Shown here: positions 10,476 to 62,296 of the stretch, piece by piece
How positions within the stretch are numbered: position 1 is the stretch's first letter
Layout of the letters: every line of letters starts with the position of its first letter
Notes under the pieces: model-generated
The model's database searches: none
What the model saw: only the letters and a program-made list of their open reading frames with translations
What the model was told of the DNA's origin: nothing
Assembly: GCA_026770705.1 (NCBI GenBank)
Contig: JANJGN010000026.1
Coordinates: 32,302,001-32,366,000 of the forward strand
From: Isurus oxyrinchus
Taxonomy: Eukaryota
Direction of reading: 5' to 3'
DNA: 64,000 nucleotides
Made by a program: the position numbers and the translations under genes

Positions 10476-10533
10476 ATGACCAGAAGGATGAGGTCGGCGA
10501 TTTCTCTCAGTTTGTTGCTGACTTCCTTATCCC
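10476..10533 (+). CDS. IGHV: Ig heavy-chain leader exon (MTRR)MRSAISLSLLLTSLS
   Basis: In-frame ATGs at 10476 and 10488, hydrophobic signal peptide, phase-1 donor C|GTGAGT at 10533/10534. Confidence 0.92.
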
Positions 10534-10660: not shown

Positions 10661-10966
10661 GTGTCCAGTCGGATGTTGTGTTCACTCAGCCAGAGGCACA
10701 GACAGGGCGTCCCGGAGGCTCCCTGAGACTGACCTGTGAAACCAGTGGGATCACGCTTAGTAAAACTTACATGTACTGGGTCCGACAGGTTCCCGAAAAC
10801 GGACTGGAGTGTCTTCTTGAGTACTATAGCTAGTCAAGCTATACCTACGCCCCAGCAATTAAGAATCGATTTACGGCGTCCAAAGACACTTCAACGAACA
10901 TCTTCTCCTTGGACATGACGAACCTGAAGATTGAAGACACCGCCATCTATTACTGTGCAAGAGACA
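10661..10966 (+). pseudogene. IGHV: IgM-type VH exon with in-frame stop
   Basis: Acceptor TTTTTACAG; translates [100 protein letters not shown]; both Cys and the FR2 Trp present; TAG at 10831-10833. Confidence 0.95.
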
Positions 10967-11005
10967 CACAGCGAGAGGAACCAGGGCTGGACCCGAACAA
11001 GAACA
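10967..11005 (+). other. VH recombination signal sequence, 23-bp spacer
   Basis: Heptamer CACAGCG 10967-10973, 23-nt spacer, nonamer ACAAGAACA 10997-11005. Confidence 0.93.
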
Positions 11006-11364
11006 GTTCGAGAGGAACTCAGCAACTTCCATCATAACCTGACGGTCAGTGCTTGATTTAACTGTAATGATCCGAACCAGACAATGAACCGCTTCTGACA
11101 AAAGTACAACAGCAAATTTAGTAAAACCTAACAAACCAATCGATATAATGAGCTGAGCTTTTGGCTGTGTTTAATTTATATTTACTGTTAACAGCTTCCA
11201 TAAATACAGACCTGGATATAATGCTCATGTTGCTATGTCTAATACTTGGAGCGTGTCTCCTTTCGTTTCCTTTAGTAAATTGTTGCATTAGTTCTAAATT
11301 AGATCAGAAGTAAACGTCTATTTGAAGTGAATAATGAGTGACCTATTGAACAGAGAGTGGGTGC

Positions 11365-11392
11365 AGTTTTAGTGCTGGTGTATTTCACAGTG
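11365..11392 (-). other. 12-bp-spacer RSS 5' of D
   Basis: Nonamer AGTTTTAGT 11365-11373, 12-nt spacer GCTGGTGTATTT, heptamer CACAGTG 11386-11392; ~360 bp after the V RSS, a normal shark V-D1 distance. Confidence 0.88.
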
Positions 11393-11455
11393 CGGGCACA
11401 AGTGCTCTCGATCGCGACTACTGGGGACAAGGGACCATGGTGACAGTGACTGCAC
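11393..11455 (+). CDS. IGHJ: Germline-joined D(D)-JH segment (GTSALDR-DYWGQGTMVTVTA)
   Basis: WGQG motif, phase-1 donor C|GTAAG at 11455/11456; only 23 nt between the D heptamer and the JH core, with no J-RSS or inter-D RSS. Confidence 0.9.
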
Positions 11456-12158
11456 GTAAGAAACATACATTTATTTAGTAACTGCTTTCCTTGAATTTTT
11501 GTTTTATAATGTCTATTTTGATAATTAATTCCTTCAGTGAAACGTGAGTTTGGTGGATTCTGTATTGAGATTTTTTAATACAGACGAGATAATTCATTCA
11601 CACAGACACAAACGCCAGTCTATTGATGAAATCATTGTTCAAACGCACTTTTTAAAGGACATATCCACCAACAGTTGTCCCTATCACATGATGACCCGAC
11701 AAACACACTAAGCAATATTCTTACTGAGAAAGTAATTTAAGTTACAGACGTGCCAAACCTTCCCACAACAAATAAACAAATAAGATGGGAACTCACATCC
11801 GAGCTTTTAAACTCAACATTCACAGTTTCCAAATAAGTAGCTATGAACCTCTATCGAAATCCACCATAATAGTCTCTAATAATAGATCGTACAAAATTGT
11901 TCGAAAATGAACTGACACTAAAGAAAATTTCCCATACCTTCCGACATGGGCTGCTCACGGAATGTCAAGGAACGACTGCTGTGGTAATAGTTACAGAGAT
12001 AGGTTGCTAAATGTCACGAACTTAACAATAGACATACATTAAAAATTAAATTAGAGATTACATTAATAGCTTAAGAAAGAAAAGTGAATACAAAAGAGCA
12101 GTAAGAAATCCTGGATTAATAAACAATCTAATTTATTTCGGGCGCTATACCCACGTAG

Positions 12159-12286
12159 ATTGCACAGATCGCATCTGGATTGAAGGTTCTGACGATGATA
12201 ACGGCAACATCTGGACAACCGCTTCCACATTCATCATCCTGTTCTTCCTGAGCATGTGCTACAGCACTGCCGTTACTCTGGTGAAG
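12159..12286 (+). CDS. Ig heavy-chain transmembrane exon TM1 (IgM-like)
   Basis: AG|AT phase-1 start; [42 protein letters not shown]; donor AAG|GTAA; open frame with the conserved Ig TM motif [14 protein letters not shown]..YS.AVTL. Confidence 0.92.
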
Positions 12287-12424: not shown

Positions 12425-12433
12425 ATCGAATGA
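12425..12433 (+). CDS. Ig TM2 exon (I-E-stop) followed by 3' UTR
   Basis: Strong polypyrimidine acceptor ATCTCCTTTTACAG|ATC GAA TGA, 138 nt after TM1. Confidence 0.75.
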   Translation: ME

Positions 12434-50233: not shown

Positions 50234-51282
50234 TCACTGTTGTAACTTGTGAGCTCGCTGGTGTCTCAGCAGGTTAGATGATTGAGTAAATCCCTTTCCA
50301 TAATCGGAGCAGGTGAATGGCCTCTCCCCGGTGTGAACTCGCTGGTGTCTCAGCAGGTTGGATGACTGAGTGAATTTCTTCCCACAATTGGAGCAGATGA
50401 ACAGCCTCACCCCACTGTGAACCCTCACTGGTGTCTAAGCAATGCAGATGACTCAGTGAAACACTTCCCACACTCAGAGCAGGTGAATGGCCTCTCCCAA
50501 GTGTGAACTCACTGGTGTCTCAGCAGGGTGTATGACTGAGTGAATTCCTCTCCGCACTCAGAGCAGGTGAACGGCCTCTCTCCAGTGTGAGTGCGCTGGT
50601 GTACAGCAAGGTGAGATGATCGTCTGAACCCAGTCCCATAGTTACAGCACCTGAACGGTCTCTCATCAGTGTGAACTTGTTGATGGTACATCAGTTCCTG
50701 AGAACTTTTATAATACTTCCCGCAGTCCAGACATTTAAAAGGTCTGTCATCGGTGTGAACTCTTTGGTGTGTCATCAGGTTGGAAGAATTAATGAATCCC
50801 TTCCCACACACAGAGCAGGTGAACGGTCTCTCCTTAGTGTGAACTCGATGGTGTGTCCGCAGGGTGTATGAGTGAGTGAATCCCTTCCCACACACAGAGC
50901 AGGTGAACGGTCTCTCCCTAGTGTGAACTCGATGGTGTGTTCGCAGAGTGGATGACTGAGCGAATCCCAATCCACATACAGAGCAGGTGAAAGGCCTCTC
51001 CCCAGTGTGAACTCGCTGGTGTGTCAGCAGAGTAGATGACTTAGTGAACCCCATTCCACATACAGAGCAGGTGAATGGCCTCTCTCCAGTGTGTACTTGC
51101 TGATGAGTTTCCAGTTCTGATGGGTAATTAAATCCCTTCCCACAATCGCCATATTTCCACGGTTTCTCCCTGTTGTGACTGCATATATGTTTTGACAGGC
51201 CAGATGATTGGTTGAAGCTTTGACCAAACACAGAACACATGTACACTTTCTCCCCACTGTGAATGGTGCTTGTTCCTTCCAT
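50234..51282 (-). pseudogene. C2H2 zinc-finger gene C, decaying (~12 finger units, 5 intact in the main ORF)
   Basis: ATG at 51282; C>Y/F substitutions; CGA>TGA stop at 50509-50511, second stop and frameshift before the last two fingers. Confidence 0.85.
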
Positions 51283-51804
51283 GTTCAAATTCTGATGATA
51301 CTTATGATAAATTGGGCAACTCCATCAAATCCTGGTGTGATGTTTGGAAAATCCTCACTTTCTAATACCCTGTCAAATCGATTGAAAACAGGGAAAAAAA
51401 GAGTGAGAAAGAACCCACAAAAACACAAAGGCAGGTTGTGAAATTGAGCTGAATGAATCTGGTAATTTGTGAGGCCAGCATCAGGAAAAAGTGACCATGA
51501 AAACTGCTGGATTGTCATCAAAACCCAAGTGGTTCATTAATGTCCTTCAGGGAAGAGAAGGGTGGGTGTGGACCTACACACAACTCTGGCCTCTATGGGA
51601 GGGATGAAAGGGAGAAAGAGGTGGGAGAGCCAGGAAGTGAAGGAAAGAGATTCTTTATATCGACAACTTGACCAGAAATACAGAACCTCCTAAACCCTCA
51701 ACCTCCACCTCCTAGAAGGACCAGAGTAGCAGGGGACCAGGGTAGCAGGTGTATGTAAACACCATCACCTCCAAGTTCCCCTCCAAGTCACAGACCGTCC
51801 TGAC

Positions 51805-60836: not shown

Positions 60837-61958
60837 TTACTTGTGAATTCGCTGGTGTCTCATCAGGTTGGATGACTGTGTGAATCTCTTTCCACACTTG
60901 GGGCAGATGAATGGTCTCTCCCCAGTGTGAACTCGCTGATGTGTCAGTAGGGTGGATGACTGAGTGAATCCCTTCCCACAGTTGGGACAGGTGAACGGCT
61001 TCTCCCCGGTGTGAACTCGCTGGTGTACAGTGAGATCAGATGATGTCTTGAACCCAGTCCCACAGTGAGAGCACCTGAATGGTCTCTCGTCAGTGTGAAT
61101 ACGTTGATGGCGCATCAATTCCCCAGAACTTTTAAAACAGTTTCCGCAGTCCAGGCATTTAAAAGGTCTCTTATCAGTGTGAACACGCTGATGGGACATC
61201 AGCTCCCTGCAATTTTTATAGCACTTTCTGCATTCTGGGCAGTTGAAAGGTCTCTTATCAGTGTGAACACTCTGGTGATTCAGCAGGGTGGATAACTGAG
61301 TGAATCCCTTCCCACAGTCAGAGCAGGTGAAAGGTTTCTCTCCAGTGTGGACTCGCTGGTGTGTCAGCAGGTTGGATGACTGAGCGAATCCCTTCCCACA
61401 GTCAGAGCAAGTGAATGGCCTCTCCCCGGTGTGAACTCGCTGGTGCTCAGTGAGTTGAGATGACTGTCTGAATCCAGACCCACAATGAAAGCACCTGAAT
61501 GGTCTCTCGTCCGTGTGAACACGTTGATGGAGCATCAGGTCCCGGGAACTTTTAAAGCACTTCCCACAGTCTGAGCATTTAAAAGGTCTCTCGTCAGTGT
61601 GAACTCGCTGGTGTGTCAGCAAGTCAGATGATCGAGCGAATCCTTTTCCACACTTGGAGCAAGTAAATGGTCTCTCCCCAGTGTGAACTCGCTGGTGTCT
61701 CAGCAGGTTAGATGACTGAGCAAATCCCTTCCCACAGTCAGAGCAGGTGAATGGTCTCTCACCTCTGTGAACTCGCTGGTGTCTCAGCAGACTGGATGAC
61801 TGAGTGAATCCCTTCCCACATACGGAGCAGGTGAATGGCCTTTCTCCAGTGTGACTGCGTCGATGAGTTTCCAGATCAGATGGAAATCTGAATCCCTCCT
61901 CACAGTCTCCACATTTCCACAGTTTCTCTCCGATGTGAACGGTGCTTTTTCCTTCCAT
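60837..61958 (-). CDS. Intact C2H2 zinc-finger protein D, 13 tandem fingers (373 aa from first ATG)
   Basis: All 13 CxxC-x12-HxxxH units intact with TGERPF/TDERPF linkers; splice acceptor TTTCACAG at 62057-62064; frame is open from the acceptor. Confidence 0.92.
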
Positions 61959-62296
61959 GTTCAAAATCCGATGATATTCAGGTTTCAATAACTTGGGCGA
62001 CTGTCTCAGATTCTGATGCGATGTTTGGTTTGAGTTTCCTGACTGAAAAATTCTCCCTGTGAAATTGATTTAAAACAGAAAAAAGGGAGTGAGAGAGAAC
62101 CCACAGAAACACAAAGGCAGGTTGTGAAATTGAACTTAATGATTCTGGTAATTTTGGGGGCCAGAACTAGGAAAAAATTACCATGAAAGTTGTTGGATTT
62201 TTTGTAAAAACCCAACTGGTTCATTAATGTCCTTCAGGGAAGGGAACCTGCCTCCAGTCTGGGCTCCACAAGACTCTGGCCTCTATGAGAACACTA

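Follow-up and report, generated by a model that had tools for sequence, protein, structure and literature searches.

The 64,000-nt stretch of DNA analysed here (the window) carries an immunoglobulin heavy-chain cluster of the IgM class in which everything from D1 to the start of J is replaced by a 23-nt insert, and V has stayed unjoined. The joint is inherited, not somatic. We give somewhat better than even credence to an irregular RAG cut-and-rejoin in the germ line as its origin, in a family of which all four copies are broken or without constant exons; the action of RAG in germ cells is a point that we infer from the borders of the joint and from sister events in the same genome.

Organization of the joined cluster

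Relative to 40 unjoined clusters, 791–815 nt are missing at the window joint, and the D1 3′ RSS, the D2 RSSs and the J RSS are gone, as an earlier note on this DNA had stated. That note also described the V 23-RSS as kept, which is correct (Table 1), and D as keeping its 5′ 12-RSS, which is correct for the signal only: the 12-RSS opposed to that of V is present, but no D is retained and the 5′ end of D1 is absent. The left border of the joint is exactly the edge of the 12-RSS heptamer, and the V(23)/(12)J pair that remains at the locus is 12/23-compatible, in agreement with the earlier picture of an unjoined V facing a joint with one end at an RSS border. The GC-rich junction next to a 5′-trimmed JH is likewise as described: the insert has a GC content of 65% against 37% in the V-D interval, and J has lost the first 8 of the 14 nt before its Trp codon, those 14 nt being present in 40/40 unjoined clusters. 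The palindromes CGATCG and TCGCGA reported in the junction do occur in the window copy, but the second is absent from the outgroup copy L004. Overlooked earlier were an in-frame TAG in the window V at 10831–10833 and, with RSS quality judged against the paralogue consensus, one heptamer change and one nonamer change in the window 12-RSS, in which the CAC is kept.

Two leader codons of the window copy (10476–10500) are in the paralogue state, unlike those of the other three family copies, a mismatch possibly due to gene conversion or an assembly mosaic. Downstream of the cluster the window contains exons of C2H2 zinc-finger arrays at 33646–34245 (+), 50509–51324 (-) and 60837–62069 (-).

Table 1. 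Features of the joined cluster, in window coordinates, and location of the two loci with an inverted D2-J interval.
Feature	Position	Strand	Description
Leader exon	10476..10533	+	Open, GT donor; leader-V splicing seen in contigs, probably from paralogues
VH exon, IgM-cluster class	10661..10966	+	Pfam V-set matched on sister copy L002
V 23-RSS	10967..11005	+	Identical to consensus of 48 paralogues
V-D1 intervening DNA	11006..11364	+	Collinear with unjoined paralogues, 84% over leader-V-interval
Former D1 5′ 12-RSS	11365..11392	-	Opposed to V 23-RSS, now facing J
Junction insert CGGGCACAAGTGCTCTCGATCGC	11393..11415	+	23 nt, without D1 5′ end
JH	11416..11455	+	5′ end trimmed by 8 nt, GT donor intact
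Deletion scar	11577..11600	.	CH1-CH4 and secretory tail removed
IgM membrane exon TM1	12159..12286	+	Open, splice phase fits J
TM2 coding part	12425..12433	+	Two residues and stop
Inverted D2-J interval, L050	L050:1860-2300		Genome G000, contig C26 near 36.125 Mb
Inverted D2-J interval, L069	L069:1880-2320		Contig C152 near 0.303 Mb

Genome-wide census and class of the cluster

Of 132 candidates found when the species' own genome (4.98 Gb) was searched, 40 were scored and yielded 42 matches, 4 of which span the joint. As a pattern, the core of the insert occurs without mismatch at exactly four places, of which three lie on contig C26 and the fourth on C152. With 63 genome matches to a J pattern and one more locus from the own-genome search, 64 loci were classified; this census rests on the exact J pattern, and alleles on unplaced contigs may be counted twice in it. 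A second VH class, which we take to be IgW-like, is carried by 11/64 loci. Among the first-class loci, 40/53 are unjoined, with the layout V(23)-(12)D1(22)-(12)D2(12)-(23)J and a D1 3′ spacer of 22/23; the remainder comprises the 4 copies of this family, 3 V-DD-J, 3 V-D-DJ, 1 VDD-J and 2 loci with an inverted D2-J interval. One second-class (IgW-like) cluster, L042 (C20 near 77.087 Mb), has a single D between V and J and degenerate signals.

Four C exons with a mu-like secretory tail, followed by TM1 and TM2, were found in two paralogues and, in broken form, in L004. CH4 and the tail of a paralogue match mu chains over residues 5–128, and the cluster class is therefore IgM.

Inheritance of the joint

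In a tree of V plus the V-D interval (52 rows, leaving out the 11 second-class loci and the V-joined L073), the four joint-bearing copies, L001–L004, form one clade (100/100) with a stem of 0.097. They differ from one another by 0.3–3.1% (L001 and L002 by 0.27%), the nearest loci outside the family are 11.8–13.0% away with no close unjoined relative, and in two of the four the insert itself contains point changes. A somatic clone could not produce a clade of four copies diverged to this extent, and the joint is thus germ-line, as the earlier note had claimed. In run X2, a DNA run that may be the source sample of the assembly, a contig bridges 11308–11444 with 0 differences. A contig of run X3, another sample from another study, also bridges the joint and has variants of its own; that X1 and X3 are RNA runs is judged solely from their splice joints and somatic junctions. 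In organism B the V-D interval and the J intron are present, and none of the contigs listed bridges the joint. A somatic clone or an assembly artefact could appeal to the small distance between L001 and L002 and to unplaced contigs, some of which repeat clusters of C26 nearly letter for letter. Set against the divergence within the family, the altered insert and the bridging contigs of two samples, such an origin is refuted for the joint.

Nature of the joint

At the 58 non-family loci the bases after the D1 5′ heptamer are ATAC (44), TTAC (12), ATAT (1) or CTCT (1), so that D1 starts with one of the first three in 57/58, across both VH classes, and with CGGG in none; the family copies read CGGG or CAGG. 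The 5′ end of D is kept in 6/6 of the joined loci that have a 5′ RSS before the joined D (L028, L030, L043, L046, L052 and L067). An uncut 5′ RSS would keep the 5′ end of D, which is missing here, and the window joint is therefore not a plain D-to-J joint; the earlier proposal of a D-to-J coding joint whose D retains its 5′ RSS does not stand. A full heptamer directly before bases that are not those of the D1 5′ end corresponds to a signal end joined to a processed coding end, and the heptamer border of the 12-RSS has likely been opened and resealed, as an open-and-shut or a hybrid joint. Open-and-shut joints are defined in PMC2193590 and non-standard RAG joints in PMC2193153, in the portions of both papers available to us. 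Plain indels on the family stem number 4 in 761 columns (about 1 per 190), which makes it unlikely that a deletion would by chance begin at precisely the heptamer.

Remnants of D1 or D2 coding sequence were sought in the insert on either strand, and the longest matches are 3–5 nt (shuffle frequency 0.35–1.0); the alignment to unjoined clusters that the earlier note had envisaged for assigning such remnants thus ends at chance level. The nine other joined loci have 0–2 added nt, which can be read as P nucleotides, several with microhomology, and germ-line light-chain joints show 'little evidence of TdT activity' according to the available part of PMC2193156. The long N addition assumed earlier is out of line with both, and an N region of 23 nt next to an RSS left uncut does not describe this joint.

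These observations bear on the possibility that the window holds ordinary germ-line D1-(D2)-J coding joints with N/P additions, next to a D1 5′ RSS that was never cut and with D1 itself diverged or eroded. Such joints would account for the GC-rich insert and its short palindromes; somatic junctions of run X1 have 18–40 letters between V and J (12 listed), a somatic V-DDJ intermediate is described for nurse shark in the accessible portion of PMC2435157, and V-D-DJ and V-DD-J germ-line forms are present in this genome. However, the loss of a D1 5′ end that is so uniform elsewhere, a D remnant not above chance and the 0–2 nt added in the other germ-line joints make this a rather improbable origin.

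The explanation that we prefer is an irregular rejoining of ends after two germ-line RAG cuts, one at the D1 5′ signal and the other at J. In a first step the cut at the D1 5′ RSS would have been resealed with the signal end placed onto a trimmed D1 3′ stub, as an open-and-shut joint; in a second, the trimmed J would have been joined, at a shared 3-nt word, to this stub, which still carried part of its 3′ heptamer and spacer. Alternatively, and more simply, a single step could have led to the same end state, with the 12-RSS attached to J by a hybrid joint that took up a long insert. Since both signals point the same way, a hybrid joint should here be a deletion by the standard mechanism. By either route J gained a 12-RSS, and V(23) and (12)J would in principle be able to recombine a single time. 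The four copies descend from one ancestor, and three of them lost the C exons later. In favour of RAG, what has gone is precisely the set of signals and intervals that RAG takes out, with the V RSS untouched, and nine other loci of the genome have clean joints at RSS borders. Against it, the stem is long and has no close unjoined relative, the insert is GC-rich like N additions, and locus L066 has a microhomology deletion of ordinary look across the D2 5′ border.

Origin of the insert

When the insert is aligned to the deleted DNA, the best match begins in the D1 3′ end in 12/12 local tests, although the significance varies (p 0.003–0.083 against the first 45 nt; 0.025–0.49 against the whole interval on both strands); in a semi-global test p is 0.007 for the window and 0.046 for L004. 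The path runs from the D1 3′ end through the D1 3′ heptamer into the spacer and ends in register at the 3-nt word shared with J. Over its roughly 24 nt it requires 2 indels and 3–5 substitutions, whereas a divergence of 13% predicts about 3 changes. A tailored motif test (shuffle frequency 0.0005) was chosen after the match was seen and is hence not counted. The resemblance is weak and suggests, as a lead and not as proof, that the insert comes from the D1 3′ stub plus the start of heptamer and spacer.

This in-register alignment to the D1 3′ end, its heptamer and the spacer is also what ordinary decay without RAG would leave, if one plain deletion took the D1 5′ end and another, with a 3-nt microhomology at its ends, removed the DNA between the spacer of the D1 3′ RSS and J. 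Every copy is damaged, the family also has a large plain deletion of C exons, and the microhomology deletion over the D2 5′ border in L066 is of this kind. Decay is nevertheless unlikely in our judgement: one border is exactly the heptamer edge in a lineage with so few stem indels, the loss equals what RAG removes beside an intact V RSS, and clean RSS-border joints occur at the nine other loci.

The junction may alternatively hold P nucleotides on an untrimmed J of the TCGC type, as in L050; this requires an extra 4-nt deletion in J, L004 differs at that place, and the family is not sister to L050, L064 and L069. Capture of DNA from elsewhere was rejected, a 19-nt pattern from the insert having matched only the 4 copies and one further locus with 1 mismatch, whose 111 flanking bases are unrelated; a control pattern also gave 1. 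Matches to an inverted D1 or D2 inside the insert are at chance level, and re-creation of the heptamer by microhomology fusion with D1 requires a reversion in the outgroup L004 and is not favoured.

In unjoined clusters such as L072 the D1 3′ RSS has a 22-nt spacer with a head-to-head heptamer-like palindrome that resembles a signal joint and lies 10 nt before the nonamer; this cryptic heptamer in the D1 3′ spacer is a possible, putative cut site.

Other joined or irregular loci

In L050 and L069 the D2-J interval of 395 nt is inverted relative to L064, with 99% identity; D2 has gained a 23-RSS and J a 12-RSS, and both joints have 2-nt palindromic additions. L064, which is unjoined and about 98% identical to L050 and L069, represents the parent-like state. 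The resulting order, with an open V, is V(23)-(12)D1(22)-(12)D2(23)-(12)J, in which neighbouring pairs are all 12/23-compatible. This is a germ-line inversion with two reciprocal hybrid joints, cleaner than the window joint and arguably more interesting, and non-standard joining in the germ line has thus taken place in this genome. The two loci may be alleles.

Among the remaining loci, L046 (C26 near 32.919 Mb) is a V-D-DJ form in which the first five D1 bases are changed at the 5′ heptamer border, possibly a second open-and-shut scar. L052 and L067 are V-D-DJ forms joined by microhomology; in L067 the D2 5′ heptamer border shows a single additional T, which may be a P nucleotide or an assembly error. 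L028, L030 and L043 are three separate V-DD-J forms and L073 is VDD-J, with 0–2 added nucleotides. In L066 the microhomology deletion removed the 5′ end of D2 and two heptamer bases; its relatives L027 and L029 have a mutated heptamer.

Coding capacity and transcripts

The deletion of CH1-CH4 and the secretory tail, which the earlier note had overlooked, is common to L001–L003 and amounts to about 17.9 kb relative to L004 and about 14.7 kb relative to an unjoined paralogue; when five paralogue exons were searched for in the window, only TM1 matched. In L004 the C region is kept, but CH1, CH2 and CH4 have frameshifts and the AG of the V acceptor is changed to AT. The window stop codon alone could be an error or a private allele: the X2 and X3 contigs, possibly merged from more than one copy, read C at position 10832 and do not show the stop. 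No copy (0/4) combines an open V and its splice sites with intact C exons, and with the window stop, the loss of C exons in three copies and the frameshifts and dead acceptor of L004, none of the four is able to make IgM. All four copies also have Cys for the FR2 Trp, a change overlooked earlier (Trp in 59/60 other loci), and in each the nonamer or heptamer of the 12-RSS is changed, whereas it is unchanged in 43/48 paralogues. The family is probably dead as an antibody gene, that is, a pseudogene family. The peptide GTSALDRDY read across the junction by the earlier note is indeed in frame, but its claim that half of CDR3 is hard-wired concerns a pseudogene without product in the window, and in none of the copies do a usable V and intact C exons occur together.

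In L002 and L003 the leader, V, J, TM1 and TM2 are all open. One contig of X3, a run guessed to be RNA, covers 10979–11455 and continues with the first 12 letters of the family TM1, and unrearranged transcripts thus appear to splice J to TM1. Somatic VDJ joints abound in run X1, and some of its contigs cover the V-D interval and the deletion scar. Changes within the family comprise 12 synonymous and 11 non-synonymous ones, giving a pS of 0.095 and a pN of 0.026 (p 0.002; pN/pS 0.28), a hint of constraint that speaks against a pure pseudogene; pN is, however, not significantly below the value for non-coding DNA (0.043, p 0.13).

If L002 and L003 were working receptors, V would recombine once onto the 12-RSS and a single V domain would sit on a short stalk without constant domains. 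Germ-line RAG would then have reduced an IgM cluster with three recombination steps to a V(23)/(12)J gene with one, before the constant exons were deleted. The V-J-TM1-TM2 product, with its half-fixed CDR3, would be a minimal antigen receptor of a new kind, born from an irregular joint. The open frames and compatible splice phase, the 12 family-specific TM1 letters after J in the X3 contig, the perfect V RSS with a 12-RSS that keeps CAC, and the pN/pS ratio all point in this direction. However, none of the 15 joints listed, out of 43, ends at 11393 as a V-to-insert joint would, and the TM1-spliced contig still holds the unrearranged V-D interval. The FR2 Trp is lost, all 4 copies show erosion of the 12-RSS, a stop interrupts V in the window, and at p<0.05 pN cannot be told from non-coding DNA. 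We consider a working receptor very unlikely; most likely the locus yields sterile J-to-TM1 transcripts and no antibody chain.

Comparison with known systems

The germ-line-joined IgH forms of cartilaginous fish named in the available text of PMC5192425, PMC4279169 and PMC2193153 are VD-J, VD-DJ and VDJ, and the V(23)/(12)J end state is not among the forms in that text; the available part of PMC12227049 contributes no further form. The window cluster resembles them in being an IgM minicluster of V-D1-D2-J-C origin that underwent a germ-line change at RSS borders, followed by duplication, but differs in that V is unjoined, D is not recognisable and the retained 12-RSS border has seemingly been cut. 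In the literature searched, outside of which most subscription papers lie, no report was found of a germ-line V-DDJ or V(23)/(12)J form or of a shark IgM without C exons. Germ-line joining itself has long been known; the V(23)/(12)J outcome by deletion is a new form of it.

The somatic V-DDJ intermediate of nurse shark, as given in the accessible portion of PMC2435157, has the same map: V with its RSS, the V-D interval, a 12-RSS, a short junction and J. Its somatic coding joints should, by their mechanism, keep the D1 5′ end, whereas the window joint is inherited and lacks it. Nurse shark IgM1gj, to judge from the available parts of PMC5192425 and PMC4279169, is likewise a germ-line-altered IgM cluster that has lost constant sequence; however, it is fully joined, lacks CH2 only and is an abundant protein, whereas in the window family all C exons are gone or broken and the family is known from genes and contigs.

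The value of the window joint is evolutionary, the window copy being a pseudogene. With the D level removed and a 12-RSS passed to J, it illustrates from nature a path by which a heavy-chain V-D-D-J cluster could be reduced to V-J. Mammalian lambda and TCR alpha have the V(23)/(12)J arrangement. The L050 and L069 loci, beside the parent-like L064, are a clean second case of inversion. Germ-line RSS swapping has been proposed as a route by which antigen-receptor loci changed their 12/23 layout, with one documented shark case in the available part of PMC2193153: the horned shark IgH hybrid joint with an inverted D1-D2 interval (Kokubu 1988, as described there). As far as that description goes, the horned shark joint and the window joint are alike in that an RSS was swapped onto another coding end in the germ line; the former is a reciprocal inversion, of which L050 and L069 are the close counterpart for the D2-J interval, whereas the window joint is a deletion with a 23-nt insert.
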